A program made the translations under genes and the position numbers. Positions 7,201-24,885 of a stretch of 64,000 nucleotides of DNA are shown piece after piece. The stretch covers positions 1 through 64,000 of the forward strand of contig JBDLRP010000013.1 of NCBI GenBank assembly GCA_039799905.1. The letters are read 5' to 3'. The notes under the pieces were generated by a model. The model searched no databases. It saw only the letters and a program-made list of their open reading frames with translations, and had not been told where the DNA came from. The DNA is from Pseudomonadota bacterium. GTDB lineage: Bacteria; Bdellovibrionota_B; Oligoflexia; Silvanigrellales; Silvanigrellaceae. Numbering within the stretch: position 1 is the stretch's first letter; the number at the start of each line of letters is the position of its first letter.

Positions 7201-7770
7201 CATCTGCACCCAAATGGGCACGCGCTTTTGCATCGTCTTCATCGCGTTGCGTGCCGCGCGCACGGCGATTTTGATCTGTCCGAGGTCCTGCGCCGTTTCA
7301 ATCAGGATCGCATCGGCTCCGCCGGCAATCAGACCACGCATTTGCTCGTAGTAACTGCGATACATGGTGGGATAATCCACCTGCAAAAGAGTCAGCAGCT
7401 TGGTGCCCGGCCCAACACTGCCGACAACCCACTTCTTCTCTGTGAAGCTCTCTGCAACCTGACGCGCTATTTTGACCGCCTGCACGTTCAAATCAAAAGC
7501 TCGGTGCTCCAGACCAAATTCAGCGAGAACGATCTCATTGCAGCCGAAGGTGTTGGTTTCAACGGCGTCGGCACCCGCGCGCAGATAATTTTCATGAATT
7601 TTTTGAATCCACTCTGGCCTGCGTTCGTTGAGGAGTTCAACGCAGCCATCGTATTGTGCGCCACCGTAATCTTCGATCGTCGGACCGTGCGCAAAAATCT
7701 GTGTCCCCATCGCACCGTCGAGCAAAATGACCCGATCCTGCAATGCGGTGCTCAATGACAGGTCTCTCAT
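4273..7770 (-). CDS. metH: Cobalamin-dependent methionine synthase
   Basis: 'LLDGAMGT', 'GGCCGTTPEHI', 'GERTNANGSK', B12-binding 'DVHDIGKN' and C-terminal reactivation domain 'RYSFGYPACP'. Confidence 0.97.
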   Translation of the reverse strand: MRDLSLSTALQDRVILLDGAMGTQIFAHGPTIEDYGGAQYDGCVELLNERRPEWIQKIHENYLRAGADAVETNTFGCNEIVLAEFGLEHRAFDLNVQAVKIARQVAESFTEKKWVVGSVGPGTKLLTLLQVDYPTMYRSYYEQMRGLIAGGADAILIETAQDLGQIKIAVRAARNAMKTMQKRVPIWVQMTIETTGTMLVGSDVQAALAAIEMLGVDVIGMNCATGPDEMRPHLAYLCEAAPMKVSCLPNAGLPENRNGETYYPLGPQQFAERLRGIGKDFGLNILGGCCGTTPEHIRALADVRGQLNAPQRAGRYERSVSSLYNSVSLSLEPRPLYVGERTNANGSKAFRDALARDDFETMVEIAKEQAKEGAHILDVCVAYVSRDEKRDMTEFLKRLVTQVNIPLMIDSTEVPVIEAALQLAPGKCIVNSINFEDGEEKPRRILDLCREYGAAVVALTIDENGMARTCEEKVKIAERLYKLVVEEYGFADEDLIIDPLTFTLGSGEAEWRNSAVETLSAIDVLRSRYPRLKTILGLSNVSFGLKAWPRQILNSLMLYHAVDRGLTMAILNASKILPVARISPEHRKIFEALLFNERSEIADPLKEILAAFSDPNARLQQSVNDDDSPIEQKLKNDIIDGRKNQIAQHALEALQTHPPLSIINDILLDGMKTVGERFGAGQMQLPFVLESAEAMKAAVKVLEPYIEKKEGYKKGRIILATVKGDVHDIGKNLVEIILSNNGFEVLNLGIKQPIESIVETYRSQGADAIGLSGLLVKSTVIMKENLEYMAAHGFNIPVILGGAALTRDFVERECQAVYSGPVFYAEDAFSGLHLMEKICSGGVGQLLAARAEALERASASAESSDKIVVIRRGDKKVPLDANGQSSWVRRDVGIPQPPFWGVRKAEHSLTDVFEYLDDFALLRSRWGFAQGQMSDDEFEKVLRERAYPTLLRLREKVIREKTLKPAALYGYFPACSRAGNEVVVYDPSSMAEGNVRGSREIIARFTFPRQENGRQLCIADFLAHESTGQTDVLGVQLVTMGHVASENAHAAYAENQFSEYFFLHGLSTELTEAYAELMHARIRRDLGIHERDAKNKRALFSQGYQGSRYSFGYPACPDMELNAPLLKLLGAERIGVTLSESFQMVPEQTTSALVVYHPQARYFST

Positions 7771-7773
7771 TTT

Positions 7774-8070
7774 CTAGCTTCCTATGTAATCGATTGTGAC
7801 GTCACCCAGAATGCAGAACTGGCAACCCAGCCGCTCATCAGCGGCGGCGCCGAGCGACGACAAAAAATCCCGTTCCTCGGGTGTCGGCGGCGACAGCCGG
7901 CTTGCGCCGTCAACCACACGAACGCGACAGGTTCCGCATGTTCCGCTGCGGCATCCGAAGGTGACGTCGGCGCCCGCGGCATCCACCACTTCCGCAAGTT
8001 TGGCGCCATTGGGCACCTCAACTTCGAGATCTTCCAAAATGAAACAAACTTTCGCTCTCTGGCCAGCCAT
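7774..8070 (-). CDS. 2Fe-2S ferredoxin
   Basis: 'FGCRSGTCGTC...RLGCQ' plant/adrenodoxin-type Cys motif. Confidence 0.92.
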   Translation of the reverse strand: MAGQRAKVCFILEDLEVEVPNGAKLAEVVDAAGADVTFGCRSGTCGTCRVRVVDGASRLSPPTPEERDFLSSLGAAADERLGCQFCILGDVTIDYIGS

Positions 8071-8082
8071 GTCAGCCGCTCC

Positions 8083-9972
8083 TTAAATCAATGCGAGTGC
8101 AAGTTCGACCTGTCCGAGCGGCGCCGAGATCTGCAATCCCTGCACACTCCGCTTGATCTCGGCAATCAGCTCGGCAGCGATTTGCAAACCTTCTTTGCGC
8201 TGATCTTCTGTCGTCTTGCAGGCGCGCATGCGTTCAAGCACCTGCGACGGCACGTAAACACCCGGAACCTCGTTGGCCATGAACTCTGCATTTCTCAGGC
8301 TCATCAGCGGCCAGATTCCGGCAATCACGGGGATGTTGAATTTCGACGAGAAATCGAGAAAGCGCATGAGACTTTGTGAATCAAACACAGGCTGAGTGAT
8401 CGCCCACTGCGCGCCGGCCTCTACCTTATAGCGGAATCGCTCGAACTCTTTTTGCAGATCAGGCGCAACAGGATTGGCTCCGACACCAATCGAAAATCCG
8501 GTGGCCCGTCCAATCGAAGTGCCACCCAAATCGAATCCTGAATTCAGACGCGATGCCATGTTCACAAGACCGATTGCATCGATGTCAAATACAGCAGTAG
8601 CAGTCGGATAAGGGCCGAGCTTTGGCGGATCACCGGTCACGCAGAGAATATTTTTCAGACCAAGTCCGGCGGCGCCGATCAAATCGCTCTGAATGCCGAG
8701 AATGTTGCGGTCGCGGCACGCATAATGAAGAACGGTTTCGATGCCGACTTTTTGTTCTATCAAACAAGCAGCAGCCAGTGCCGACATGCGTGCGCTGGCA
8801 CGCGGACCATCGGGAATGTTGATGGCGTCCACACCTGCACGCAGGCACTGCGCGGAGCGCTCAATCAGCTTGTCTGTATCGAGACCCTTGGGCGGCAGCA
8901 ATTCAACTGAAATGACGAACTTTCCATTGGCAAGACCGCGGCTCCACTGCGAAGCGGGCGCGACCGGTGTCGGCGAATTGCTGGGCGAGGACCGCTGATC
9001 CGAAACCGCCACGGGACGGTTGTTTTCGCCACCGCGAAACGCGGCGCCCTGCCTGACGGCGCCGGCCATCGCGCGGATGTGCTGAGGCGTGGTGCCGCTG
9101 CATCCGCCGAGAATGCGGACATCCTGCAAAAGAGCCTGTCGCGCAAACTCACCCATATACTCCGGACTAGCCATATAGATGAGTCGTCCATCCACCTGCC
9201 TTGGCAAACCCGCGTTCGGTTTGAGAATCAGCGGCTTGTGAGTGGCGGATTTCAGGCGCTTGGCCAGTTCCAGAAGAGGCGCGGGGCCATTGCCGCCGTT
9301 GACGCCGACAACATCTGCACCCCACTCATCCAACTTGCGGACAAACCACTCAGGCTCTGTACCGTAGAGTGTTTGCCCGTCGTCGTTGGTCGACATCATG
9401 GCAACCACGGGATAGTCGCCCAGCGACTTGACCGCACGAATGGCCTGATGAATTTCATTGAGGTCCGCGAATCCCTCGAGAACGAACAAATCGACGCCGC
9501 CCTCCTGCAGAGGACGTGCCTGTTCAAGAAAAAACTCGCGCGCTTCGTCAAAAGACGTGGGGCCCCATGGCTCGATGCGCACTCCCAGCGGCCCGAGGCA
9601 ACCGGCCACCCAAACGGTATCGCCGGCAATTTCGCGGGCAAGTTGTGCGCCGCGCAGGTTGATCGCGTTCAGCGAAGAATCAAGACCGTAATTGCGCAAC
9701 TTGATGCGGTTGGCGCCCCACGTGTTTGTGGTGACAACCTGCGCACCGGCCTGAATGTACTGCCGATGTATGTTCGAAATAAGGTCGGGCTGCGACAGGT
9801 TCACTTCATCAAACGAACGGCTGATGAAAACTCCCTTTTCGTAAAGCTGGGTGGCGACGCCGCCGTCAAAGAGAAATGCCTGATTGCCCTGATTGAGCAG
9901 GGACAAAAAACGTGAAATGCGCTCACGGGGAAAGGCTCGCGTGCCTTCCCCGCCAAGAGGTTGGTTTGTCAT
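8083..9972 (-). CDS. yitJ: Bifunctional homocysteine S-methyltransferase / 5,10-methylenetetrahydrofolate reductase (YitJ-like)
   Basis: N-terminal HMT domain ('FDGGVATQL', 'PNAGLP') plus C-terminal MTHFR domain ('SVELLPPKG', 'CRDRN', 'TGDPPK', 'ITQPVFD'). Start placed at ATG 9972 (GGAG upstream); the ORF extends to 10044. Confidence 0.9.
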   Translation of the reverse strand: MTNQPLGGEGTRAFPRERISRFLSLLNQGNQAFLFDGGVATQLYEKGVFISRSFDEVNLSQPDLISNIHRQYIQAGAQVVTTNTWGANRIKLRNYGLDSSLNAINLRGAQLAREIAGDTVWVAGCLGPLGVRIEPWGPTSFDEAREFFLEQARPLQEGGVDLFVLEGFADLNEIHQAIRAVKSLGDYPVVAMMSTNDDGQTLYGTEPEWFVRKLDEWGADVVGVNGGNGPAPLLELAKRLKSATHKPLILKPNAGLPRQVDGRLIYMASPEYMGEFARQALLQDVRILGGCSGTTPQHIRAMAGAVRQGAAFRGGENNRPVAVSDQRSSPSNSPTPVAPASQWSRGLANGKFVISVELLPPKGLDTDKLIERSAQCLRAGVDAINIPDGPRASARMSALAAACLIEQKVGIETVLHYACRDRNILGIQSDLIGAAGLGLKNILCVTGDPPKLGPYPTATAVFDIDAIGLVNMASRLNSGFDLGGTSIGRATGFSIGVGANPVAPDLQKEFERFRYKVEAGAQWAITQPVFDSQSLMRFLDFSSKFNIPVIAGIWPLMSLRNAEFMANEVPGVYVPSQVLERMRACKTTEDQRKEGLQIAAELIAEIKRSVQGLQISAPLGQVELALALI

Positions 9973-10247
9973 AAGGTGCTCCGGGTTCTGCTGTTTGGAA
10001 CCTACCATTGGGCCAGCCAGCTCGATCGAGCTTTCACGAAACATGCCGCTTAGGCAAGAGATGCCGAAGAATTTATAGGGTTTGCACCGGCCATAACGGG
10101 CAGCCGTGGATCGTCAGCAGACCAACGAATTATTTTTGACCTTCAGCGATGGACCCCACCGCCGTGCTTCGCAATAATGGTGAGGGTCTGCTCAGTCGAA
10201 AAATCTCACATTCCTGCACATTTATGGAGCAGGATATGGGGCGGTGA

Positions 10248-11255
10248 ATGAAAGTCTTTTACGATCCGGTTCAAAAAACTCATGTGCTCTCGCACGAGAT
10301 CATCGCCGGAAAACGTTTCCGTCACCATGAACGGCGCGCCCGCATCGACATCATCCGACGCCACCTGAGGGCGTACGGAAAGTTCGAATTTATTGTTCCA
10401 GAACCAATTCCGATGGAGGCACTGCTTGCCGTCCACGACGAAGCTTATGTGCGCTTTCTTGAAAGCTCGCAGATGCTCTCCAAGGACGAGGTGATTTGGC
10501 CTTACGTCTTTCCTTGCGACCGGCGTGTGCCGGTCTATGAACCGGTGACAGTTTTCACGGCTGGATACTATTGCTTTGACGTCGGCACTCCCATCATGAG
10601 CGACACTTGGCAGGCTGCCATCGCAGCAGCATCTGGAGCCTACGCGGCCGCACAGCACCTCAAAAAAACAGGCGAAACAACATACGCACTGGCGCGGCCG
10701 CCGGGGCATCATGCGGCAGCAGCCTTGTTCGGCGGATATTGCTATTTAAACAACGCGGCGATCGCGGCCAGATACCTGTCCCAATACGGCAAAGTTCTGC
10801 TTATCGACTTTGATTATCACCACGGCAATGGAACACAGTCGATTTTCTACGACTCGTCCGACGTTTTTTATCTGAGCACGCATGGAAATCCCGCAATCGA
10901 ATATCCTTACTTCACGGGTTACGAACACGAAATCGGCATCGATGACGGAGTGGGTTACAACCTCAACTGCCCGCTGGAGCCACACTGCGGTCCCGAAGAA
11001 TATTTCAATACTTTTCATGCTGCGCTTGAAAAAGCTTTGAAAAAAAGTGACCCGCAGTTTGTCGTGTGTTCGTGCGGCTTTGACGTCGCCGACAAGGATC
11101 CACTCGGACACTTCGGACTCCAGCCAGAGCACTTTCATTCCCTGGGAGAGACCATTCGCTCGCTGAAAAAGCCGACCGTTCTCGTGCAAGAAGGCGGTTA
11201 TCTGGTCGAGCGACTTGGACTCAACGTTGAGGCATTCCTCACTGCCTTCCTCTGA
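10248..11255 (+). CDS. Histone deacetylase family / acetylpolyamine amidohydrolase
   Basis: 'RPPGHHA', 'GGYCYLNNAAIAA', 'DFDYHHGNGTQ', 'QEGGY'. Confidence 0.93.
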   Translation: MKVFYDPVQKTHVLSHEIIAGKRFRHHERRARIDIIRRHLRAYGKFEFIVPEPIPMEALLAVHDEAYVRFLESSQMLSKDEVIWPYVFPCDRRVPVYEPVTVFTAGYYCFDVGTPIMSDTWQAAIAAASGAYAAAQHLKKTGETTYALARPPGHHAAAALFGGYCYLNNAAIAARYLSQYGKVLLIDFDYHHGNGTQSIFYDSSDVFYLSTHGNPAIEYPYFTGYEHEIGIDDGVGYNLNCPLEPHCGPEEYFNTFHAALEKALKKSDPQFVVCSCGFDVADKDPLGHFGLQPEHFHSLGETIRSLKKPTVLVQEGGYLVERLGLNVEAFLTAFL

Positions 11256-11261
11256 ACAGCA

Positions 11262-12911
11262 TCAGATCCTGTGCAGAAAAATACTCACCACAGCCTTGTA
11301 TCCGATGTCCGCCTCAAGTTCGCGGCGGATGGCAATTCGCAATTCTTCGCCGAGCGTTTCTTCTGTCCAGTGTGACTTTCGCTGCGAGCGGGAAATGTCG
11401 CGGAAGGACGACTTTACAACCTCGAGAACCCGATCTGATTTAACGTAAACGCCACGCACCTGCAATTTGGGCTCGCTCAGCAAACGTGTCAGGCTTGCAT
11501 CGGCAAGCAAGGACACCTCGATGATCCCGTTGCGGGCCAGCATGACGCGGTTGCGCAAGACATCGCTCGATCCGGGCACAACACGCTCACTGCCGACAAA
11601 ATCACGCCCCGAGTCCCAGCGGTCTGTGACTCCCAAGGGTTCAGGCGCAATCGTCAGCACATCGCCGTTTTCCACCAGATGGCAATTTTCAGCTAAGACT
11701 CCGGCCGACTGTGCCACACTCAGGTGCTGGACAAGATTTCGATACTCGCCATGCAACGGCATGAACATCTTCGGCTTCACAAGCGCAATGCAATCGCGCA
11801 GATCCTCAACGTAACCATGACCGCTGACGTGAACGTCGGCGTCCTTGCCCGTGAGCACGCGGCAACCCAAACGCCAGAACTGATTTATCAGAACGTTGAT
11901 TGACTTTTCATTTCCCGGAATCGCCCGTGCAGACAAAATCACCAGATCATCGCCATTGAGTCGGATGTTCTCCATGCTGCCGAAGGCAAGGCGGTTGGCT
12001 CCCGAAAACATTTCGCCCTGCGTACCTGTACAAATGATACACAGCTCACTCGCAGGGATCAGTTTCAGCTCATCACTGGACACAACAAAATTGTCATCGA
12101 CATCACCGATGATTCCAAGCCGCCTTGAGATCTCGTAGTTGCGCAGCAACGACCTGCCGACGAGAAGTACCTTGCGGCCACTTGCTTTTGCAGCATCAAA
12201 AATACTTTTCACGCGCCATATATTGCTGGCAAAAGTTGCCACAACAACCCGTCCGCGGACTCCCTTGAAGAGATCAAGCAGACTGTCGGCAATCTGCTTC
12301 TCCTCGCGATCGCGACCTTTCACAAAAACGTTTGTCGAGTCTGATGTCATGAGCAATGTTTGTCGGCCTGCCGTAATGCGCGCCAGATTGTCGAGCGTGA
12401 CAGAGCCTTCGGGCGCCGAACGATCGACCCGATAGTCGCCGGTGTGCAGCAGATTTCCGTATCGCGTCTCAAAATAGAGTCCGCACGCGTCGGGTATACT
12501 GTGATTGACGGGAAAAGGAGTGACTGCGGCGTGCCGAAAAGTTGTCTTCTGCCAGACCTGCCAGATGTTCAACTCTGGCTCCGGAAGCGACAGACCGCGG
12601 AATTTCTCGCGGATCAACTCCGCAGTGAATTCGGTTGTATAAACAGGTGCTGGAAATTCAGAATACACAAAGGGAAGCGCACCGATGTGATCTTCATGGC
12701 CGTGCGTGATGAGCCACGCGGCCGGCTTGATGCCGCGCTCGCGGACAGCCTGCAGAGATGGAAAAATCAGATCCATCCCCGGCAGGTTTTCGTCAGCAAA
12801 AAGCGTTCCGCAATCAACAAAAAACCATGAATCATCAACACGCCACAAAGTGAGATTCATTCCAATCTCACCGCACCCCCCAAGGGGAATGACTTGAAAC
12901 GACTTAGTCAT
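11262..12911 (-). CDS. rnj: Ribonuclease J
   Basis: 'PLGGCGEIGMN', 'THGHEDHIG', 'NHSIPD', 'TGTQGE', 'HVSGHG', 'PLHGEYR'. Confidence 0.95.
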   Translation of the reverse strand: MTKSFQVIPLGGCGEIGMNLTLWRVDDSWFFVDCGTLFADENLPGMDLIFPSLQAVRERGIKPAAWLITHGHEDHIGALPFVYSEFPAPVYTTEFTAELIREKFRGLSLPEPELNIWQVWQKTTFRHAAVTPFPVNHSIPDACGLYFETRYGNLLHTGDYRVDRSAPEGSVTLDNLARITAGRQTLLMTSDSTNVFVKGRDREEKQIADSLLDLFKGVRGRVVVATFASNIWRVKSIFDAAKASGRKVLLVGRSLLRNYEISRRLGIIGDVDDNFVVSSDELKLIPASELCIICTGTQGEMFSGANRLAFGSMENIRLNGDDLVILSARAIPGNEKSINVLINQFWRLGCRVLTGKDADVHVSGHGYVEDLRDCIALVKPKMFMPLHGEYRNLVQHLSVAQSAGVLAENCHLVENGDVLTIAPEPLGVTDRWDSGRDFVGSERVVPGSSDVLRNRVMLARNGIIEVSLLADASLTRLLSEPKLQVRGVYVKSDRVLEVVKSSFRDISRSQRKSHWTEETLGEELRIAIRRELEADIGYKAVVSIFLHRI

Positions 12912-12920
12912 GCATCGCCT

Positions 12921-14654
12921 TTATCGCGAGATCCTTTCAAGGGTGTCGAGATTCTCCCGCACCACAAAACGGAAAGGAAATGAAATTGTGATAGCCCCGT
13001 TGACGGGCTTCGGGAAAGTCCATGCCTTAATTTTCTTTTCCAGGCAGCCAATGAACGCGGGATCTTTGATCGTGGTGTTTTCGACCTTCGAACGGCTCAG
13101 TCTACCATTTTCCGCAATCGTCCATTTCCAGAGTATAGAACCGCCCAAACGAGGATTGCGGTTGAGCGCAACATCGTAACAGCGCTTGACCTCGGGACTC
13201 CGGCTGCGGACAAAAGATTCGACATCTCCCATGCTGATCTTTGCCGGAAGCTTGGGTACTGGCGGAGGAGGAAGCTTTCCCAATGACAGTTTCGCGTTCT
13301 TAAAAAGCTGCTCTTCATTGCCGTCTGTGCTGGTCACGGAAGGCATCGTCAGCACGCTAGCTACAGTGAGTGAATCACCCGACCAAACCAGCGGTTGCTC
13401 TTCGCCAGTCACTGAAGTTAGCTCTGAAGCGACAGAAAACTTTTGTCTTTTTCTTGCCAGTGCAGCAAAACTTTCGGCCAATTGATAATTGAGTTTTTCA
13501 TCGGAAAAAGCCTTCTCCGCGAGCCTGAAAAACAGTCCGGGCTCCTTCGGGGGATCAAAAATTTCTGGAATTTCTGCCGACTCTGCAGCGAAATGACCCT
13601 TCATGTATTCATGTTCAGTTTGAATCATCGACAGCGCTGCAGCGTGTGTCTTGTCGAGCCGCTCAAGCCGCGCACGGACACGTTCGGCGATCGAACCACG
13701 CTCGCCGCCGGAAACAGCAACACGGAAGGGCGTGTAAGCCTTTTGGCCGGTCATGAATGTTCCCGGAGCAGCGGCATCGCGACGGCCCACAACCGCCTTC
13801 CAACTGTCATCAAGTGTTGACTGCCAACCACGCCTGCGTGCAACAATATCCTCGGGAACCGAAAAACCCCGTAATACGGGAATCGGCGAATCGTAACTCC
13901 CACCGAGCTCTTCGGCCTGCCACTTTGTTCGCAAATCCTCGACCCAGCGCACGGCCTGCTTGCTGATCGCCTTGGCGTCGAATTCTCCAGCATAGGCCCA
14001 CGGCAGAATCTGGAAGTGATCCGGATGAATAATTTCGGCCGAGAGAAACGGCGACAATTCGCTGATTCCGCCAAATGAGCCTATCGGTGATTTATTCAAC
14101 CAAATCACTGCAGGAATTGTGATACACGCGGTGGAAATGAGACCCAGAAAAAATCCGGCCTTTTCGAAGGCGGTCTGTCCGTGCGGCAGTGCAAACGGAG
14201 CCTTCGGTGCGCCCTTGATCTTCGCAGCCGCCACCGGTGCTTTTGCTTTGGCCACGCGAAAGACGATGGTGTATCCGGATACTTCCAAAGCTCCACGGCT
14301 TCCATCGGGAATGGCAACTTCGAGTGGTTCGAGTACGGTCGCCAGCTCCTTGAGCGCGCCGCGCGGAGCGATGAAGTCGCGCACCGATCCGAACCGCTGG
14401 CCGTCGGAAACAAAGCCATCTAAGCGCGGATCGAGAAGCACTTTGGCGCCCCATTTGGTCACTTCAAAGAGACGCATGTCAGTGGGAAAGGGAGCAAAAG
14501 GGACAGACAGCTCCGCCTGCGCGGATTTGCCGACCCGTACAACACGCGAAGGGCCGAGCGGAAACTCGCCCTCACATTGCATTGCCGGTCCTTGATAAAC
14601 CTGTACGGAAAGAATCGTGGCAGGGCCGCGTTTCTTTTCGGGACGAACCGCCAT
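12921..14654 (-). CDS. GltG/PglI/AgmX-like energy transducer: N-terminal FHA-like domain, single TM helix, C-terminal TonB-C-like domain
   Basis: 'VRVGKSAQAELSVP' FHA-like start; one TM segment; Pro-rich linker; C-terminus 'VKRCYDVALNRNPRLGG...W.I...G....CL...IK.WTFPKP..G...ISFPFRF'. Confidence 0.8.
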   Translation of the reverse strand: MAVRPEKKRGPATILSVQVYQGPAMQCEGEFPLGPSRVVRVGKSAQAELSVPFAPFPTDMRLFEVTKWGAKVLLDPRLDGFVSDGQRFGSVRDFIAPRGALKELATVLEPLEVAIPDGSRGALEVSGYTIVFRVAKAKAPVAAAKIKGAPKAPFALPHGQTAFEKAGFFLGLISTACITIPAVIWLNKSPIGSFGGISELSPFLSAEIIHPDHFQILPWAYAGEFDAKAISKQAVRWVEDLRTKWQAEELGGSYDSPIPVLRGFSVPEDIVARRRGWQSTLDDSWKAVVGRRDAAAPGTFMTGQKAYTPFRVAVSGGERGSIAERVRARLERLDKTHAAALSMIQTEHEYMKGHFAAESAEIPEIFDPPKEPGLFFRLAEKAFSDEKLNYQLAESFAALARKRQKFSVASELTSVTGEEQPLVWSGDSLTVASVLTMPSVTSTDGNEEQLFKNAKLSLGKLPPPPVPKLPAKISMGDVESFVRSRSPEVKRCYDVALNRNPRLGGSILWKWTIAENGRLSRSKVENTTIKDPAFIGCLEKKIKAWTFPKPVNGAITISFPFRFVVRENLDTLERISR

Positions 14655-15214
14655 CAGTGCGCCCCCTGTTTTTGCTCGGCTCGAACATCAACCGCATAGC
14701 GGATGGTGTCGAAGCCACTTTTTACCAAAAGATCTGCGAGTGGCTTAATGGAATTGAGAGGTATTTTTTCGTCAACCCACAGGTCGGCGACACCGAGCCC
14801 AGCAGTCATCTTCTTTTTCAGCAGTGCAGTAAGCTCGATGTCTTTGACACGATCTGCCACTAGTTTGTCGAGCAGGGGCAACTGCTCGGGCAGGCGAACC
14901 GAATGGCCGCTGTCAAAGATCACCCGCAGTGTGGAGTCATTCCTTTCAGCACGCACCGCAAGAGTCAGACTGCTGGGCGACTGTCCTTTCACCTGCAGGA
15001 CATCGGTGTTCACCCTGTGGAGCGGCAGATGCATGCTCTCAATCAGAAAAAATTCCCCACGCACCTTCAGAGTCAGTATAAAGATGAACCAAGTCAGAAA
15101 GGCACAAAATCCGTAGGCAAGGAGAATGGCGTGTGTAGGCCTTCCCGTGTGCCGTTTGACACTCGGATGACCGATTTTCCAAACACCAAACTGTCGTGTG
15201 CCCTCGGTGAACAT
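14654..15214 (-). CDS. Divergent ExbD/TolR/AglS-like membrane protein
   Basis: N-terminal TM helix; C-terminal 'WVDEKIPLNSIKPLADLLVKSGFDTIRYAV' matches the ExbD periplasmic motif AD...PY..V..V......G...I..A; operon position. Confidence 0.65.
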   Translation of the reverse strand: MFTEGTRQFGVWKIGHPSVKRHTGRPTHAILLAYGFCAFLTWFIFILTLKVRGEFFLIESMHLPLHRVNTDVLQVKGQSPSSLTLAVRAERNDSTLRVIFDSGHSVRLPEQLPLLDKLVADRVKDIELTALLKKKMTAGLGVADLWVDEKIPLNSIKPLADLLVKSGFDTIRYAVDVRAEQKQGAH

Positions 15215-15224
15215 TTGCGCCTCT

Positions 15225-15782
15225 TCACAAAGGATTAACTAAATCTACCCGCACCAGTGCCGGACGAACTTCCTCACGGAAAACACTTTGGTTGAGACCT
15301 TCCATCAATCCAGCCAGTTCAGCCATTTCAGAGAAAGTAATCTTGGACGACTTGCGCGCGGATTCGCCAACGGCAATCACACGAACAGGGGCCTTCACAT
15401 GCACACGCAGCCAATTCTCAAGCTCAACACGCACAGAGGTCAGACCGCTGGGCGCGGGATTCTTCAAAAGCAGCTGCGACCCGCCCTGCGGAGCAATCAC
15501 ATCGGCGATTCGCCCGACGACAAGTCCTTCGGTACCCCAGAAGAACGTCAGAGTGTCACGCCCCAACTGCCTTGCGGACGCCTCGTCACTGCGCGGCAGA
15601 CTCGGATATTTGAACTCCAAAAATCCGGCGCTCTGCGGATACATCATCAAAATCTGTGAACCTGTCAGAGCAGCGCCGACTGCCGTCATTACGGCAAGAA
15701 TTCCGGCCCACGCTCCCCAAGCGAGATCAAATGATCTCTTCTTCGTCTGGAACGGGATCCGAGCGCTCCGCGCTTGCAACAT
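15225..15782 (-). CDS. Divergent ExbD/TolR/AglQ-like membrane protein
   Basis: ATG 15782 has GGGAGG SD and overlaps the ExbB-like 3' end; basic N-terminus then a single TM helix; lies between the ExbB-like and second ExbD-like genes. Confidence 0.55.
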   Translation of the reverse strand: MLQARSARIPFQTKKRSFDLAWGAWAGILAVMTAVGAALTGSQILMMYPQSAGFLEFKYPSLPRSDEASARQLGRDTLTFFWGTEGLVVGRIADVIAPQGGSQLLLKNPAPSGLTSVRVELENWLRVHVKAPVRVIAVGESARKSSKITFSEMAELAGLMEGLNQSVFREEVRPALVRVDLVNPL

Positions 15783-16521
15783 CCTGATAGCCTCCCTTAG
15801 CTCCGTCAGCAGAATCTTCACCTGCAGCCGCTGATGCCTGCGGCCCTTCTCCAACAACCGCCTGCGCGGCAGCCACAGGCTGCGCAAAGACGGGCTGCAT
15901 CTCTGGAGCGAGGAGATTCAAAATCACCGTCAGGCTGTGCTCGATCTCTCCCTCAAGGCGACTCGCCATCGCATCGAGAACTCCATAAGGAATCATCAGA
16001 AATACGGAAGCCCCAAGGCCCAACGCGATTGGCGTCAGCGCCTGGCTCAAACCGCGGCTGAATGCAAAACTTTTGAGTCCCAACTCCAGGCCGTCGACCA
16101 TCTGGAAACTCTGCCAAACCCCGTTGACAGCAGCGAGCGCGCCGAGCAGCACTGCAACTGCGGCAAGGTTGGGAAGCTGTGAAATGCGTCTGCGGATCCG
16201 TGGCATAAACGCCAGCGTTTCCTCCGAAACCACCATCCGCACGCGAAAGTTTTCAGTTTCGTATGCCTCGATTGCCTTGGCGGCAATCAGCGGAAGGCCG
16301 GTGTTGCCTGAAGCCGCGCAATACTGACGCGCACGATCCAAATCTCCCGCCGACAGCATCCGGCGCAAAGTCGAATTGAACTTTCCAAAATTCAGGCGGT
16401 AGGTCAGCTGCAAAACAATAAAGCGTTCAAAAACGATGACCCAGCCAACGGCAAAGATTGCGAGTATGATGTAGGGAACCGGCTGCCGCGCTCGGAAGAG
16501 TTCAAACATTTCTTGAATCAT
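15727..16521 (-). CDS. MotA/TolQ/ExbB proton-channel family protein (AglR-like, divergent)
   Basis: 'IVFERF' after TM1; 'AGDLDRA'; TM2/TM3 spacing 'LLG...V.G..QSF...GLSQAL...ALGL'. Confidence 0.85.
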   Translation of the reverse strand: MIQEMFELFRARQPVPYIILAIFAVGWVIVFERFIVLQLTYRLNFGKFNSTLRRMLSAGDLDRARQYCAASGNTGLPLIAAKAIEAYETENFRVRMVVSEETLAFMPRIRRRISQLPNLAAVAVLLGALAAVNGVWQSFQMVDGLELGLKSFAFSRGLSQALTPIALGLGASVFLMIPYGVLDAMASRLEGEIEHSLTVILNLLAPEMQPVFAQPVAAAQAVVGEGPQASAAAGEDSADGAKGGYQDVASAERSDPVPDEEEII

Positions 16522-16841
16522 TGCCCATCTCCGGATTGAACTTTTTCAACTTTTTTTGAATCAGCTGCATTTCCGCTGCGTTTATCGGAAGGAGGAGTCA
16601 AAAACAGGTCGGCGTTTCCAAGAATTGAAATCAATTCGTCACGCGACGTGCGGCGCGGCTTGACGGTAAAAATCTCGTAAGATGAATTGACCGCCACCGG
16701 AACTTCAGAGAGCAACGGAACGGACTGATCTCCCCGGATCAGCAACGGCTCTGCAGCAGCGGCCTGCCCAATGCACAGCAGCGTGCAAGCCATCACGGCT
16801 CCGTGGCGAAATATATTTTCTGCAATATTTCTCATATTCAT
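16518..16841 (-). CDS. Small secreted protein, possibly GltF/CglF-like
   Basis: Signal peptide ending AAAA; 'IRGD...P...Y....RRTSRDELI' recalls the I.G....P...R.SF...I pattern of GltF; ATGA overlap with the ExbB-like gene. Confidence 0.5.
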   Translation of the reverse strand: MNMRNIAENIFRHGAVMACTLLCIGQAAAAEPLLIRGDQSVPLLSEVPVAVNSSYEIFTVKPRRTSRDELISILGNADLFLTPPSDKRSGNAADSKKVEKVQSGDGQ

Positions 16842-18175: not shown

Positions 18176-18460
18176 TCATTCCTCGTCGTCGAACTCTGCG
18201 TCGGTTTCAACTTCATCCCAGTTAAAGCCGTTCGCTGCGATGACAATCTCGTAATAAACGTTGTTTCTCTTGACCAAGTCACCAGTGAAAAAACACTCCT
18301 GACCGTCGACAGTCAGAACATTCGGGACTTCTTCATCTTCGTTGTCGACGTCGTAGCCGGCTTCGCGATAAATCGATACAACAGCCTCGACATCAACGAG
18401 GTAATACTGGCCGTTTCCAAATGCTCTTTCAGCTATTGATGCGGGTGCCGTCATGTTCAA
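18176..18460 (-). CDS. Small acidic hypothetical protein
   Basis: 94-aa ORF with strongly Asp/Glu-rich, protein-like composition, 9 bp upstream of the MTase; true start may be 18454. Confidence 0.7.
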   Translation of the reverse strand: MNMTAPASIAERAFGNGQYYLVDVEAVVSIYREAGYDVDNEDEEVPNVLTVDGQECFFTGDLVKRNNVYYEIVIAANGFNWDEVETDAEFDDEE

Positions 18461-19232
18461 TTTCCTTACTTTGGGGCGAAGTGATTCGCCAAGCTGGCTT
18501 AGCCCAGAACCTACCAGCGGACAAGGTCAGCAGAGTGCTGCAGAGCGTAAACGGCATTTGCGCGCGAACTTCCGTGAATCACGGGGAAAACTCAGGCAAC
18601 ACGCACTGCGCGAGGGGGCCGGCTGGGGCAGCATTCAACTCCAACGCACCCTCGATTTTCTCGCTGACCGGCGAATCACCTCAAAAACGTCCGCGCGAAC
18701 CATCGCCAGTTATTGGCCGATTGACTCGGAACTGTGCCTGTTGCCCGGCGTCGCGAACAGGAACGCAACTCAAAACAAAAGTGCCGGCCAACCTGTCGCA
18801 TACGAAGGAACGATTTCCTGGCAACTTCCTCTGACGCTTCCCAGTAAGGAGCTTTCTTGGTTTGAGCTCTCGCCGGAGGTCGAAACCTGGCCGCGCGACA
18901 GAAACGGACTACCGCTGACTCCTGCAGATGTGAGCACCGGCCGATTTGCAGAGCACCAACCCGCACCCTGGATTGTCTTGGTTCCCTGTTTGGCCGTCGA
19001 TCGCGATGGTTATCGGCTTGGCTACGGCGGAGGATATTACGATCGTTTTCTTGAGAAACATGCGGCAAACTGTCTGACGATAGCCTGCGTGCCCGATGAA
19101 CTTCTCCTCGAGGCTGGAAAAATTCCCGTCGAGAGTCACGACCGTCCGGTCGACCTTATTGTGAGTGAGCGCAGACTTTTCGAGCCACGCCGCGAGCAGT
19201 TGCTTGAAAAAATAAATTTATTCAACTGCTGA
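18453..19232 (+). CDS. ygfA: 5-formyltetrahydrofolate cyclo-ligase
   Basis: 'KRHLR', 'SYWPIDSE', 'VPCLAVDRDGYRLGYGGGYYDRFL', 'IPVESHD.PVD.IVSE'. Start codon uncertain. Confidence 0.9.
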   Translation: MFNFLTLGRSDSPSWLSPEPTSGQGQQSAAERKRHLRANFRESRGKLRQHALREGAGWGSIQLQRTLDFLADRRITSKTSARTIASYWPIDSELCLLPGVANRNATQNKSAGQPVAYEGTISWQLPLTLPSKELSWFELSPEVETWPRDRNGLPLTPADVSTGRFAEHQPAPWIVLVPCLAVDRDGYRLGYGGGYYDRFLEKHAANCLTIACVPDELLLEAGKIPVESHDRPVDLIVSERRLFEPRREQLLEKINLFNC

Positions 19233-20160
19233 AAAGCGCGCGCGGATATATTTTTCCGTCTTCAAAATGCCCAACCACAACTTCTGTGGCCAACGTCAGC
19301 CCGTAAACAAGACACAGGTCCTGTCGGCTGATTTGCGAAAAGGATGCCGACATCTCTCCGCTCCTCAGACCCGCTGCTATCTGCAGGACGACTCCGGAGG
19401 CTTCGGTATAACGACGAAAATACCTCAAAAAAGCATCCAATTCTTGACTATTTTCGGCAAAAAAAGAATGCGCCACGCCGCGAAAGTCGACACCCTTGCC
19501 AACAAATACACCTGCCGCAATTTGCCTCTGTGAGTCTTCAATCCAACTGACGCACATCTCCGGAATTTCAAGAACCTGACAAAACTTTGCGAAAGAAGAT
19601 GAGCTTTCGCCGCGTAACCGGCCACGCTCAAATGCACGCCAAAGGCGGACTTTTTCGTCTTCGCCAAGCACCGTCGTCAGCAGCGGCTGACGAAAAATGT
19701 GCTGACCGTCAGGCTGTGGATCCACGACGGAAAAGGAAGAGAGAATTTCGGTTCCGGCCCGCCTGAAGCCGAGCGATTCATAAAATTCCGGCTGATCGGA
19801 GAACAGATAAAGAAAGTCGTGAGACTCTTCAGCGCGAAGCTGTGAAATCACTTCAGTCAAAAGCCGTCGGCCAAAGCCGCGGCGCTGAAATTTCGGATCA
19901 ACGGCGACGCTGCCTATGCAACCCCCGCGTAGATATTGAGGCTCACTCCAAATCTCGGTGTCTACTGCACAGCAGGCGATAATGTTTTCGTTCGGGTCGA
20001 ACGCTGCAAATTTTCTTGCAGCTGACGAAGGCGAAAAAATATGCGGGAAACTCGCTGTATAATCAGTTACGGCAAATGCCGTACGCAGCAACTCCGACAA
20101 TCGGCCCGAAAAATCAGGCTGAGCAATTTGCCTCACGGCAATTTCAGCCTCGCGGGTCAT
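19222..20160 (-). CDS. GNAT-family N-acetyltransferase
   Basis: 'IGSVAVDPKFQRRGFGRRL' acetyl-CoA motif A; 'FYESLGF'. Confidence 0.88.
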   Translation of the reverse strand: MTREAEIAVRQIAQPDFSGRLSELLRTAFAVTDYTASFPHIFSPSSAARKFAAFDPNENIIACCAVDTEIWSEPQYLRGGCIGSVAVDPKFQRRGFGRRLLTEVISQLRAEESHDFLYLFSDQPEFYESLGFRRAGTEILSSFSVVDPQPDGQHIFRQPLLTTVLGEDEKVRLWRAFERGRLRGESSSSFAKFCQVLEIPEMCVSWIEDSQRQIAAGVFVGKGVDFRGVAHSFFAENSQELDAFLRYFRRYTEASGVVLQIAAGLRSGEMSASFSQISRQDLCLVYGLTLATEVVVGHFEDGKIYPRALFSS

Positions 20161-21110
20161 CGCGCGGAAACCGCCAGACGCTCGCCCATCTTGACCAGAG
20201 TCTCATGACCCCGCTGTGAATTTGCAACAAGGTCATCATCAAACTTTATGGTGTCTTTTTCAAAGAACAGCACGCAGGTGCTGCCGCCGAACTTGAAATA
20301 ACCTTTCTCGTCGCCGCGCTGCACCTGTGTTCCGGCACGATACGTCTGCACAATCGAGCCTACAAAAAGTGCGCCTATCTCCATCATCAGCACGGTTCCA
20401 ATTTCATTGTTGCGCAACTCGCAGATGGTCCGCTTGTTCAGGCAATAAACCGGAAGTCCCTGCTCAAGTGCATAGGGACTCACACTGTGCAGCAGCCCTG
20501 GAACCGTTTTGGTGATACCGACTTTTCCGCCGACGGGAAAATGAAAACGGTGGTAGTCGGATGGACAGAGGCGCAGAACCGCGCATGCGCCATCGCGAAA
20601 TTTATCCGCAAGATCCTGGTTTTTATTGAACAGCTCAAAAAGCTTTATCGGTGCCCATTTCACATACGACAGTGTCTGATCGTCGATCTTGGGAAAGACC
20701 AGCAAACGGCCGTCACCAGGCGATGCTACGTCTTTTTCCGACGGAGTCACCGGCCGCGCACCCGACTTCAATTTGCGAGCAAAGAAATCGTTGAAGCTTA
20801 CATACTCAACCAAATCCTTGCTGCATTCGCCGACGTCAATTCCAAGAGCCTGCACAAAATCCTCAATCTTGTGCTTGCTCGCGGCGGAGTCATTGTAGGC
20901 GCCGTAAACATTGCTCAAAAGGCGGTTGGTCAGCACGCGGCTGGTCACAGCAAGACCCATCGGGTGACCGTAGAACACCTTCATCACATCATCGCCATAA
21001 ACCTTCTCATGAAAAACTTCTCCGCTTTTCCGGTCGACGACCTCAATGCGCTTCGATTCAACACCCAAAATTTTAGAGAGCGCAAACTCCCGTCCACCAA
21101 AAAGCGCCAA
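20157..21110 (-). CDS. psd: Phosphatidylserine decarboxylase proenzyme
   Basis: 'SFNDFFARKLK', 'SPGDG', 'RLCPSDYHRFHFP', cleavage motif 'FKFGGST'. Confidence 0.95.
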   Translation of the reverse strand: MALFGGREFALSKILGVESKRIEVVDRKSGEVFHEKVYGDDVMKVFYGHPMGLAVTSRVLTNRLLSNVYGAYNDSAASKHKIEDFVQALGIDVGECSKDLVEYVSFNDFFARKLKSGARPVTPSEKDVASPGDGRLLVFPKIDDQTLSYVKWAPIKLFELFNKNQDLADKFRDGACAVLRLCPSDYHRFHFPVGGKVGITKTVPGLLHSVSPYALEQGLPVYCLNKRTICELRNNEIGTVLMMEIGALFVGSIVQTYRAGTQVQRGDEKGYFKFGGSTCVLFFEKDTIKFDDDLVANSQRGHETLVKMGERLAVSAR

Positions 21111-21113
21111 AGT

Positions 21114-24002
21114 TCATCCCTCCTGCGGAGTCACAGTAAATTCGCGCTGCACGATACGTCCACCATCAAGTCCGCTGCCGGGCCCGAGGAGGATCAGCTG
21201 ATCGGCAAATTCTTGAAATGCCTTGTGGTGTTCAACCACCACAAATGTATGCCCTTGTTGTGTCAGGCTGCGCAATGTTTTGAGCAGTTGTCCGACGTCT
21301 TTTTCCGAAAGACCACGGGTCGGCTCGTCGAGAATGCAAAAAAGCTGCTTTGACCCTTTGGTGAGCGCAGAGCAGAGCCTCAGCCGCTGTGCCTCGCCAC
21401 CAGACATAAAGGTCGTCGGCACCCCGAGCGGCAAGTGCCCCAAGCCAAGCCGCACCGCTACTGAAAGTGGCTTGGCAAACGCACTCTCCTGTGCAAGCTC
21501 AACCGAACAATCATCGAGGCTTGTTTCCAGCCATTCACGGATGTTGCGGCCGCGCCAGCGCACGGCCAGAACTTCCTTGCGGTAGCGGCCGCCAAGACAT
21601 TCGGGACACTGCTTGTCGACTTCGCCCAGAAAAAACAAATCTTCGCGGATAAAGCCCTTGCCACCACATTCTTCACACGCGCCGGCGCCATTGAAAGAAA
21701 AATCACTGGCCATCAGATCGAGATTCTTTGCCTCGGGAGTTTGCGCAAACTGCTTGCGCAGACCGTCCATCAACCCCAATACTGTCGCCGGAACACTGGT
21801 GATGGTTCGGTGCATCGCCTTTTGCTCTACACTGACAACATCACAGTCGTCGAAGAAATTTTTGGGCAGCGTCAGGCGATTCCAAAGCCCTCGTCCCTCA
21901 TCCGGATCAAGGCGATTGTTTTCAGCCTGCCCCGTATCCATGAGCCAATCGAGCGCCGCCTCGAGTCCGCAATGAATCAGAGTCGACTTTCCTGCCCCGC
22001 TTGGACCGCCAATCACAGTGAGCCTGCCCAGCGGAATTTCAAGTCTGACGTCCTTGCAGTTGTGCATCGAGAAACCATCCAAGACCGCAGCATTGCGCAC
22101 ACCAGGCAATGCCTCTGCCAGGGGAATCTTTTTTCTGCGAACAGGCTTCAAGCCGAGCGCTTTGATATCCAAAAACACCGACTCGGGCTCAGTGCCTGCG
22201 GGCGGTAAAAGCTCTCCGCCGCGACTGCCGCCGCCTGGCCCCAATTCATACCAAACATCGGCATTGCGGATGAGTTCAGGATCATGTTCGACCATCAAAA
22301 CCGTGTTCCCCAGGTCGCGTAATTCCTTTAGGCAAGCCACAAGTTGGGGAATTTCGGCACGTCCAAGACCGACGCTGGGTTCGTCGAGAACATAGAGGGC
22401 GTCTGTCAGTCCGTTGCCAATGACGCGCGTCAGCAACACCCGCTGATATTCACCGCCGCTCAACGTCTTACAGCGGCGGGATAACGTGCTGGAGCCCAAG
22501 CCGAGGCGGATGAGCAAATCAATCTTGCGCGAAAGCTCCTGCCAGATGTCTCTGAGTCCGGTGAGTCTGTGTGAAAGTTTTGCTGACCCCTCAACCGCCC
22601 TCATCCACATCTGAACAGAACTGATTTCACCGTGCATAAGAGAGCTGTATGAGACACCCTGACAGTGTGCCTGACGTCCAGCGCCCGCGAGGCGGGTGCC
22701 GGAACAATCAGAACACGTCACGTATCGACGGTATTTTGCGAGCAGAATACGCGACTGCTGTTTGTAGCGTTCAGCCTCAAGCGCAGCAAAGAATTCTTCG
22801 ATGCATACAAATTGTGATTTGCGGCGGGAGCGCGTGCCGTCGGCATTGTCCTGCGGCAATCCAGACCATATGATCTTGCGTTGATCTGCAGACAGTTTGG
22901 ACCAAGGCACCGTGACAGGAATCGACAGTGAGCGACAGGCGCGGATGAGTTCATCGTTCATCCAGCCGTATACTTCGCTCGACCAAGGCTTGATGGCTTT
23001 ATCCTGAAGACTCAGCCGCGGATCGGGAATGATCTTTGCCTCATCGAGCACAGGAACATTGCCAAGCCCCCGGCACGTACGGCAACCACCCAGCACACTT
23101 TGCCAATCGAGGTCGCCGGATTGAATCAACTGGGTTGTATCGTTGCACGAGTGACAAAACGGCTGAACGCGAAAAACATGATTTTCGGTTACCTTTTCGC
23201 TGTCGGCATGAAAATCGAGCAGCTGCAGGTTGGAAAAGCGGTTGGAAAAGCGCACCTGACTCCATACGGCATCAGTGCGATTGCGCAGTTCATCCTGCGC
23301 AATATCGGAGGACATTCTGTCGAGCACCACCAACACATCGGAGGGGCACGCGGCAACACGTTTTTTATCGGATTTCAATTCATCGATTTCAGCAACAACA
23401 CCATCAACGATAATTTTCGTGATGCCCTCAAGCACAAAGCTCTCGAGTGTTTGCCGTCTCTCCTTGGGATCATCCGGCAGACGGAAGGGAATCGCCAAAA
23501 TCTTATAAACTTCGCCCGCAGAATCGCGCGAAAAATCCTCATTGAGCCGCTGCACTAATTCGGCAACCGAGTGAGTTTCGGCTGGAGAACCACAGCGAGA
23601 GCAGCTGTCATCCATCAAAGTGACAAAAGAAATGCGCAGCGGATCGAAAATATCTGCGCTTGTCCCGACAACCGAACGCGGATCTCCGGTGCGGTTTGTC
23701 TGCTTGAGGGCAACGGCCGCTGGTATGTTGTCTATTTGGTCGAATTCTCCGGCCGGCAGGCCTTGCAAAAACTGCCGCTCGTAGGTTCCGAGAGTTTCGA
23801 GAAATCTTCGCTGTGCTTCTGCATAAATCGTATCAAAAACAAGCGAGCTTTTGCCACTGCCCGACACCCCTGTAACGGCGACCCACTTGCCCAGCGGAAT
23901 GTCGAGACGCAAATTTTTAAGATTGTGAGTTCGCACGCCCTCGCAAGAAATGACGGCCTGCGTCGAACTCTTTTTTGTATCCGCTTCACTGTGTTTGGGC
24001 AT
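21114..24002 (-). CDS. uvrA: UvrA-family excinuclease ATPase (divergent)
   Basis: 'THNLKN', two Walker A motifs (GVSGSGKSS, GPSGAGKST), LSGGE/MSGGE signatures, LDEP Walker B motifs, CxxC zinc motifs. Confidence 0.88.
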   Translation of the reverse strand: MPKHSEADTKKSSTQAVISCEGVRTHNLKNLRLDIPLGKWVAVTGVSGSGKSSLVFDTIYAEAQRRFLETLGTYERQFLQGLPAGEFDQIDNIPAAVALKQTNRTGDPRSVVGTSADIFDPLRISFVTLMDDSCSRCGSPAETHSVAELVQRLNEDFSRDSAGEVYKILAIPFRLPDDPKERRQTLESFVLEGITKIIVDGVVAEIDELKSDKKRVAACPSDVLVVLDRMSSDIAQDELRNRTDAVWSQVRFSNRFSNLQLLDFHADSEKVTENHVFRVQPFCHSCNDTTQLIQSGDLDWQSVLGGCRTCRGLGNVPVLDEAKIIPDPRLSLQDKAIKPWSSEVYGWMNDELIRACRSLSIPVTVPWSKLSADQRKIIWSGLPQDNADGTRSRRKSQFVCIEEFFAALEAERYKQQSRILLAKYRRYVTCSDCSGTRLAGAGRQAHCQGVSYSSLMHGEISSVQMWMRAVEGSAKLSHRLTGLRDIWQELSRKIDLLIRLGLGSSTLSRRCKTLSGGEYQRVLLTRVIGNGLTDALYVLDEPSVGLGRAEIPQLVACLKELRDLGNTVLMVEHDPELIRNADVWYELGPGGGSRGGELLPPAGTEPESVFLDIKALGLKPVRRKKIPLAEALPGVRNAAVLDGFSMHNCKDVRLEIPLGRLTVIGGPSGAGKSTLIHCGLEAALDWLMDTGQAENNRLDPDEGRGLWNRLTLPKNFFDDCDVVSVEQKAMHRTITSVPATVLGLMDGLRKQFAQTPEAKNLDLMASDFSFNGAGACEECGGKGFIREDLFFLGEVDKQCPECLGGRYRKEVLAVRWRGRNIREWLETSLDDCSVELAQESAFAKPLSVAVRLGLGHLPLGVPTTFMSGGEAQRLRLCSALTKGSKQLFCILDEPTRGLSEKDVGQLLKTLRSLTQQGHTFVVVEHHKAFQEFADQLILLGPGSGLDGGRIVQREFTVTPQEG

Positions 24003-24885
24003 GCCGGTTCAGTTCCTGCTGAGCAAATTCGGGCGGAGAGTATCCGCGGACATCCAGAAAATGAGTGATCCACGGATCGTGCAAATCATGCAACTCTTTC
24101 CATGTACCTTTTGCAATCAGCCGACCGTCGTGGAGAATTGCGACCCGCCGTGCAAATGTGAAGGCAACCTCAACACTCGAAGTGACGCAGAGTAAACTAC
24201 TGCCCACTTCTGCAGCAAGCTTGTGAATCATATCAATAACCACAGCCGAGGTCACAGGATCCAGACCCGCTGTCGGCTCATCGAGCAACGCCAGGTCGGG
24301 CGAGGTCGACAATGCCCTGACAATGCCGACGCGACGGCGCATTCCACCCGACAACTCACTTGGAAGCTTGCGGGCGGCTGTTGGTAAATTCACACTCGCC
24401 AGCATGCGATGCACCTTTTCCTCCATGTCGTAGGCGGGCAGTTCGGTCATATTCTCCATCGCAAAGAGAATGTTTTCGCGCACAGTCATGAAGTCAAAAA
24501 GTGCGCCGAGCTGAAAAGCCATTCCGACGCGCGTGAGCAATTGGTTCTTTTCCTGCCGACCAAGCAAATTGATATTTTGCCCAAATAAATTCACCGTCCC
24601 TCGTTCGGGCGCGATCAGGCCGAGCATGCCTTTGAGAAGTGTACTTTTGCCGCTGCCGCCCGCGCCGAGAATCGACAAATGCTCTCCGCGGGTCATTTTC
24701 AAATCCACACCTTCCAGCACCCGCCGCCCGTCGTAGGCCTTGTGAAAATTGACAACTTCGACAATAGTCTCTGTTCGATCAGGGGATTGTCGCTTTTGCT
24801 CTCGGCCATGAGTTGGTCCTAAAGACATCTGTTTCTCTTTCCCGCATTCGGTGGTCGAGCACTCAAACTCCGAGAAGTCTGACAT
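23986..24885 (-). CDS. ABC transporter ATP-binding protein, MlaF/Ttg2A-like
   Basis: 'GAGGSGKSTL', 'FQLGALFD', 'PSELSGGMRRRV', 'DEPTAGLDPVTS'. Confidence 0.88.
   Translation of the reverse strand: MSDFSEFECSTTECGKEKQMSLGPTHGREQKRQSPDRTETIVEVVNFHKAYDGRRVLEGVDLKMTRGEHLSILGAGGSGKSTLLKGMLGLIAPERGTVNLFGQNINLLGRQEKNQLLTRVGMAFQLGALFDFMTVRENILFAMENMTELPAYDMEEKVHRMLASVNLPTAARKLPSELSGGMRRRVGIVRALSTSPDLALLDEPTAGLDPVTSAVVIDMIHKLAAEVGSSLLCVTSSVEVAFTFARRVAILHDGRLIAKGTWKELHDLHDPWITHFLDVRGYSPPEFAQQELNRHAQTQ

Follow-up and report, generated by a model that had tools for sequence, protein, structure and literature searches.

The window, 64,000 nucleotides (nt) of an Oligoflexia genome (GenBank assembly GCA_039799905.1, contig JBDLRP010000013.1, forward strand; here G000), carries at positions 12921-16841 a module of five intact open reading frames (ORFs) on the minus strand, as the initial annotation had described, which we call F, B, D1, D2 and G (Table 1). 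Four of these genes (B, D1, D2 and G) are, judged by sequence, derived from AglRQS-GltG, and both plug subunits lack the proton-carrying aspartate (Asp). Strong conservation without an acidic residue, a near-invariant acidic tail on the ring subunit B and the position of the module ahead of rnj, the gene for RNase J, together point to a 5:2 complex that is sealed and unpowered and serves as a scaffold, with cytoplasmic tails that would dock a partner, a reading to which we give an even chance of being correct. The tail and the RNase J linkage, both missed in the initial annotation, are the two strongest clues. The module has the predicted architecture of a Tol/Exb/Agl stator, but it is not classed here as a proton-driven motor because the tests for the plug Asp and for the threonine (Thr) ring both failed.

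The residues D23/D25 of the plug and two Thr of the ring are the proton-transport residues common to TolQRA, ExbBD and MotAB (PMC12965293; here and below, cited papers are drawn on for the parts of their text that were available), and 5:2 motors, including Mot, Ton, Tol and even the vWA type, rest on this plug Asp and Thr ring (PMC12965293; PMC12204202). The observation that the membrane span contains no acidic residue was correct for the transmembrane helices of both D1 and D2 in the window. Among the relatives compared, those named being Silvanigrellaceae and other Oligoflexia metagenome-assembled genomes, the PxxD (D25) motif near the transmembrane helix was absent from 68/68 D1 and 66/66 D2 orthologues (one D2 with unknown bases was left out of the 66), so that the plug Asp (D23/D25) of a proton-driven 5:2 motor was found in 0/68 D1 and 0/66 D2, and the motif was present in all 88 canonical controls (AglQ 28/28, AglS 28/28, TolR/ExbD 32/32). 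An Asp or Glu between two residues before and 14 residues into the hydrophobic segment occurred in 11/68 D1 and 4/66 D2, nearly all at the cytoplasmic edge, and an acid inside the 21-residue segment in 13 D1 and 8 D2, mostly at the periplasmic end. The assignment of Gly and Ala to the D25 position holds as far as the residue is non-acidic, but which residue stands there varies with the alignment (I28, A30 or V35 in D1). D19 of the D1 'SFDLA' stretch was considered as a substitute Asp and rejected: the residue covaries with the overlapping stop codon of B in 68/68 cases (Asp/Glu with TGA, 37/37; Lys/Asn with TAA, 16/16; Arg/Ser with TAG, 15/15), and since it is dictated by that codon it is not a conserved Asp.

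The ring subunit B matches PF01618 at 36.2 bits (cut-off 22.9), which supports its description as ExbB/AglR-like; its profile found TolQ among PDB sequences, and a quick tree with 72 rows placed its family as one side of a branch (SH-like approximate likelihood ratio test, SH-aLRT, 99) within an AglR-like group (93), separate from TolQ, ExbB and MotA. The substitutions reported for transmembrane helices 2 and 3 (TM2 and TM3) were confirmed against E. coli ExbB, with A130/A131 at G147/T148, Q161 at E176 and I166 at T181, and both Thr of the ring (T148, T181) are therefore missing from the window's B. The change of E176 to Gln is uninformative, since canonical AglR has His at this position in 19/29 sequences, and it is not the telling loss it had been taken for. 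Nor was the loss coordinated, as had been proposed; it was stepwise, the Asp being absent class-wide and loss of the Thr ring being confined to the window's family and some members of family f6. T148 survives in 3/30 and T181 in 0/30 genomes of the window's family, whereas 32/39 and 33/39 genomes of the other families retain them, although D1 and D2 there also lack the Asp; T181 is replaced in five f6 genomes, and T148 too in four of these. As the Thr ring is mostly kept where the plugs are without Asp, the sequences indicate that the Asp was lost first and that the Thr ring drifted afterwards, at least twice, as would be expected of a disused path. TolQ with Thr changed to Ala nonetheless assembles with TolR (PMC12965293).

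The plug and transducer assignments were examined by profile and fold comparison. D2 is ExbD/TolR-like, as had been stated: PF02472 was found in 20/38 orthologues at E<=0.5 (best 4.5e-5), and hhalign profile comparison gave E 7.7e-7 (probability 92%) with TolR/ExbD and 3.5e-6 with AglS. Its top fold match was TolR (5BY4; Z 7.5, root-mean-square deviation 2.8, 85 residues aligned), with an unrelated kinase level with it at 7.4, and ExbD (Z 6.5) stood in the top five with TolR, among unrelated folds at similar Z; the window's own D2 had no Pfam match by itself, and Foldseek gave none at E<=0.001. For D1, topology and gene position fit the proposed AglQ-like role, but homology is weak, with PF02472 in 0/41 orthologues, an hhalign match to AglQ at E 3.9e-4 over 138 columns (probability 36%) and TolR at Z 5.0, rank 17, below actin-like matches, with the strand-helix order as expected. 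G comprises a cytoplasmic FHA-like domain, a transmembrane helix, a periplasmic region of about 230 residues and an AgmX/PglI domain resembling the TonB C-terminal domain (TonB-CTD; residues 468-566; NF033768, 86.5 bits). These features bear out its description as GltG-like, except that the first FHA domain and the Pro/Gly-rich linker of GltG are lacking; G fell short of the GltG profile NF033760 (62 bits, cut-off 650), to which the C-terminal and, weakly, the central FHA-like domain aligned. Against the genome's own GltG, hhalign gave E 3e-15 for the C-terminal domain and a weak match (E 0.013 over 149 columns) for the N-terminal domain, which is the counterpart of the second cytoplasmic (FHA) domain of that GltG and, in the atlas, is similar to this region in Myxococcota and Bdellovibrionota proteins with FHA; the published model of this second domain of GltG is an FHA fold that packs against the AglR ring (PMC11761067). 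Residues 190-425 of G had no recognised match, the atlas giving none above 0.82 by features or a TM-score of 0.33. F could not be upheld as GltF: NF033764 (GltF/CglF) matched 0/9 F orthologues, and CglF matches in G000 fell on genes elsewhere in the genome. The dN/dS (ratio of nonsynonymous to synonymous rates) of F was 0.17 (one pair).

A B orthologue (E<=1e-50, with a profile built from 40 of these sequences) was present, in single copy, in 91/104 Oligoflexia genomes; 12/13 genomes without the module are of 3.1 Mb or less, compared with 21/91 with it (hand count; related genomes are not independent). The dN/dS ranges, from which pairs with saturated dS were excluded, were 0.016-0.061 for B, 0.039-0.138 for D1, 0.023-0.117 for D2 and 0.070-0.092 for G, so that the check suggested in the initial annotation revealed purifying selection on all four (0.02-0.14). 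In three same-genus comparisons B(1-205) was 95-96% and the D1/D2 transmembrane helices 85-96% identical, and whole D1/D2 were only 52-55% identical compared with 84-88% for AglQ/AglS; that the ring and plug helices are far more identical than whole D1/D2 indicates constraint on the membrane core. Comparison of orthologues likewise showed that the absence of the Asp is conserved class-wide, which together with purifying selection and single copy number rules out lineage-specific decay. The canonical motors TolQR, ExbBD and AglRQS with Asp are all encoded in G000, as are glt genes with AglRQS and four MotA-like genes, and the description of the module as a retained but de-energised paralogue is thus sustained by the class-wide lack of Asp, purifying selection and the canonical motors alongside.

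The C-terminal tail of B reads exactly DEEEII in 67/69 genomes (the others have DEEEVI and HEEEII, one each) and in 120/120 of the homologues listed, the best 120 of 198, although the profile behind them includes the tail and hence favours it. It follows a variable acidic linker, with 30-75 residues between the end of the last conserved helix and the C-terminus. The C-terminus of ExbB is cytoplasmic and, by homology, the B tail is probably so too. The same stretch encodes the basic N-terminus of D1 in another frame; codon variation in the tail is synonymous in the B frame in 67/69 genomes, with the overlapping D1 residues varying, and selection therefore acts on the tail of B. This synonymous variation excludes the alternatives that the tail is a Shine-Dalgarno signal or a by-product of the D1 N-terminus. 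No other ORF of more than 100 residues in G000 ends in a DEEEII-like motif, and the tail is retained as EEE(I/V)I in the five genomes in which G is missing its TonB-CTD (G036, G052, G055, G041, G077).

The rnj gene starts 9 nt after the stop codon of G and encodes the only RNase J found in the genome, with domains PF22505 and PF17770, a TIGR00649 score of 367.5 bits (just below the cut-off of 400) and the metal motifs of this beta-CASP metallo-beta-lactamase (H70, H72, D74, H75, H137, D159 and H365) invariant in 40/40 sequences. In 81/91 genomes it shares contig and strand with B and lies 2.3-3.6 kb after it; among the 10 split assemblies, G immediately precedes rnj in four, and the other six, in which the upstream stretch was unexamined, hold no contradiction, so that RNase J follows G in 85/91 genomes in total, with no counter-example. 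It was also the only neighbour seen to be common to the window's family and other families. K336 and R347, considered as RNase J positions that relax on loss of the module, were rejected, as they vary with phylogeny and stay the same where the module is lost within a genus.

On the scaffold reading, Agl/Tol structures and models suggest that B would form a pentamer plugged by the helices of D1 and D2 and clamped by G through its transmembrane helix and FHA-like domain. There would be no ion flux and no power stroke; the periplasmic part of G may serve to anchor or position the assembly within the envelope, and up to five DEEEII tails of the ring would be available to a cytoplasmic partner. RNase J is the leading candidate, its 5'-3' RNA decay being tethered or regulated at the membrane; if the module is a scaffold, this identity of the partner is a guess from gene linkage alone that we regard as possible, with somewhat more to be said for its being wrong. 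The full picture, in which a non-conducting membrane platform with five acidic tails anchors or gates RNase J and couples RNA decay to the envelope, we hold to be unlikely as it stands. Several observations weigh against it. RNase J is present in 104/104 genomes, and thus in all 13 that have no module, and G062 is cleanly devoid of the module next to rnj, which makes RNase J independent of it; nor did any RNase J column track loss of the module among 59 genomes with it and 11 without. Outside the window's family other neighbours are conserved as well, with FHA-HD-GYP upstream and Nudix among those downstream, and the linkage with rnj may therefore reflect old synteny; co-transcription of G with rnj is putative. 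For the scaffold itself, the insertion of the plug and the way its residues face are presumed by analogy, the weak homology of D1 counts against it, and the Thr ring together with a new Asp in TM2 persists in most other families. Complex prediction for RNase J with G(1-165) and the B tail (233-264) scored 0.02 and 0.00, which is evidence neither way.

Other explanations were weighed against the same data. In an unpowered outside-in relay, G would touch a ligand in the outer membrane or the wall through its TonB-CTD or periplasmic region, and the ring would signal a cytoplasmic regulator, with the position of rnj incidental; G does span the membrane with domains on either side, and the FHA-HD-GYP phosphodiesterase, whose gene stands ahead of B at the majority of loci outside the window's family, could be such a regulator. 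We think this unlikely as well, as G000 retains the tail but yielded no full-length FHA-HD-GYP orthologue, the TonB-CTD is dispensable in five genomes, conservation is lowest in the periplasmic domains of D1 and D2, and four genomes of genus g5 that are closed or near-complete showed no GltA-type barrel. The same genus bears on the proposal that the module acts as a brake or as alternative subunits that mix with a canonical motor (AglRQS, TolQR or ExbBD) and tune it. All three motors occur in G000, B derives from the AglR-like group, and most families other than the window's retain a Thr ring that could serve a canonical plug; but the module brings its own ring, plug pair and transducer, and in g5 it was present in 11/13 genomes and canonical AglR in 0/13, with four PF01618 genes and no more in each of five near-complete genomes. 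In the four g5 genomes mentioned, G was also the sole AgmX/PglI protein, and CglF was found in 0/2 genomes tested. With canonical AglR found in none of the 13, loss of the Agl-Glt motor seems to have occurred in this genus, and since the genus keeps the module, the module is not a mere gliding accessory and mixing with a canonical Agl motor, as suggested in the initial annotation, falls as a general function; mixing of any kind is quite improbable in our estimation.

No better placed is the possibility that the module is still ion-driven, through a titratable residue shifted to the ring or another coupling ion. Outside the window's family an Asp occupies the position of ExbB W150 in 34/39 orthologues, most of them with both Thr. 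The window's family, however, has Asn, Gln, His or Tyr there (30/30) and no Thr ring, and four f6 genomes keep the Asp and lose both Thr, so that the two features are uncoupled. Lying two residues from T148, the position probably points away from the pore by helical periodicity, and the Asp often accompanies an Arg at the periplasmic end of the D1 helix (by eye), an arrangement more like a salt bridge; the chance that this explanation is right appears slim. Decay of a duplicated Agl motor can be set aside almost entirely: losses and truncations do occur, mainly in small genomes, but the module is found in 91/104 genomes with intact frames and dN/dS <=0.14, and for the window's lineage dN/dS refutes it.

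The nearest known system is AglR5-AglQ-AglS with GltG of Myxococcus xanthus (PMC3169522; PMC11761067), with which the module shares the order of ring, Q-like and S-like genes, a heterodimeric plug and an AglR-type ring; like GltG, G has an FHA-like domain before its transmembrane helix and a TonB-CTD (PMC11761067). Unlike AglRQS, the module lacks the Asp in both plugs, has lost the Thr ring in the window's family and bears the DEEEII tail, and unlike Agl-Glt it has a G without the first FHA domain and linker, is present where AglR was not found and is linked to rnj. The Agl-Glt core complex consists of aglRQS with gltD, gltE, gltG and gltC (PMC3169522). No gltD, gltE or gltC ORF was found in the operon at any listed locus, the rest of those genomes not having been searched, and as the locus is without GltD/E/C and the outer-membrane Glt genes (GltA and GltB likewise), it is not the complete Agl/Glt system it had been called. 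With TolQ5-TolR2-TolA and ExbB5-ExbD2-TonB of E. coli the module shares a PF01618 ring, TolR-fold periplasmic domains and a TonB-CTD-like transducer end, but the window's proteins lack the equivalents of D23/D25, T145/T148 and T178/T181, there are two different plug subunits, no tolB or pal lies at the locus, and the transmembrane helix of G is without His (by eye). The vWA-type 5:2 motors without ExbD also combine a TolQ-like ring with atypical partners, often heterologous pairs, but unlike the window's family they retain the Asp and the Thr ring (PMC12204202). The membrane-associated RNase J degradosome of Helicobacter pylori is a precedent for a compartmentalised RNase J machine in a Gram-negative cell, and the available part of that account mentions no motor-derived anchor (10.1101/2020.05.11.085670); RNase J binding by the module is putative. 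A literature search covering few subscription papers and no supplements returned no paper on the window's motor-like family.

A class-wide, selected, single-copy family without the Asp suggests that the 5:2 architecture can be kept for work that is not proton-driven, and its natural series, in which the Asp, then the Thr ring, the TonB-CTD and the whole module are lost, lends itself to separating assembly from energy coupling. The six-residue tail offers a simple handle for finding the partner, for which Oligoflexus tunisiensis is a cultured host. Should an RNase J platform prove true, it could be called a 'pseudo-motor' by analogy with pseudo-enzymes.

Table 1. Coordinates of the module and associated features in the window.
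Feature	Position	Strand	Basis or remark
F, small protein, probably secreted, IxG motif	16518..16841	-	seen ahead of B, and only in the window's family
B, AglR/ExbB/TolQ-like ring subunit, 264 aa, three transmembrane helices	15727..16521	-	PF01618
B A131, equivalent to E. coli ExbB T148	16129..16131	-	alignment register
B N133, equivalent to ExbB W150	16123..16125	-	orthologue alignment
B I166, equivalent to ExbB T181	16024..16026	-	alignment register
Shine-Dalgarno-like AAGGGAGG within B, 8 nt ahead of the likely D1 start	15791..15798	-	sequence
DEEEII, C-terminal motif of B	15730..15747	-	conservation across genomes
D1, AglQ-like single-pass protein, 185 aa, without D25 motif, TolR-like periplasmic topology	15225..15782	-	profile/fold comparison
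D2, AglS/ExbD/TolR-like single-pass protein, 186 aa, without D25 motif	14654..15214	-	Pfam/profile/fold
G, GltG-like transducer, 577 aa	12921..14654	-	NF033768, profile alignment
RNase J, candidate fifth member	11262..12911	-	Pfam/NCBIfam

The genes are closely packed, with a 4 nt overlap between F and B, a 10 nt gap between D1 and D2 and a 1 nt overlap between D2 and G. D1 most likely starts at the ATG at 15782, which lies inside B behind AAGGGAGG, has a counterpart at an equal offset in most of the window's family and gives a protein of 185 instead of 220 residues; B and D1 then overlap by 56 nt. A promoter scan gave chance-level results, and the six contigs (173-220 nt) of one metatranscriptome, one of them across the F/B junction and none across G-rnj, were uninformative.

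After the canonical aglR-aglQ-aglS genes of G000 (C41:66997-77320, minus strand) come a GltA-type barrel, TPR proteins and gltG; the Asp is retained in both canonical plugs, and His stands at the E176 position of this AglR. The MotA-like genes (contigs C45, C29, C46 and C19) each adjoin a MotB-like gene, those on C29 and C19 following long FliG-like fusion ORFs (labels by eye). MglB/Roadblock (PF03259) was found in 0/61 genomes, of which 46 have canonical AglR. Family f3 resembles a decay series (L161:6282-7185, L166:3810-4873, L167:4972-8037), with the full set, HEEEII and a truncated G in G077, whereas in G034 and G060 rnj is preceded by no more than two small ORFs; these may be remnants, but only one of them matches B, and weakly (E 0.0014). 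In G106, B is broken into two ORFs (L194:6839-7626) by a frameshift or an assembly error.

Outside the window's family, the gene directly upstream of B encodes an FHA and HD-GYP (cyclic di-GMP phosphodiesterase-like) protein (L053:2249-3802 and equivalents), and at the same loci rnj is followed by a Nudix hydrolase gene, in many cases accompanied by a nucleosidase-like gene; next to RNase J, such a Nudix enzyme could provide 5'-monophosphate ends. Two RNase Y-like genes, one above and one below the TIGR03319 cut-off, were found in each of five genomes searched, those of G000 lying at C30:281-1804 and C21:204098-205645, and RNase E/G is present there along with RNase J. The neighbours of the module in the window (4273-11255 and 18453-24885) include a histone-deacetylase-family gene (PF00850) and genes that we take to be methionine-synthase-like, homocysteine-methyltransferase-like, phosphatidylserine-decarboxylase-like, UvrA-like and ABC-ATPase genes. 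An N6/N4 DNA methyltransferase gene (PF01555; 16898-18166, minus strand) shares its strand with F and lies 56 nt upstream, and a gene of similar size precedes F in L141, L142 and L146, though not in L143 or L144.

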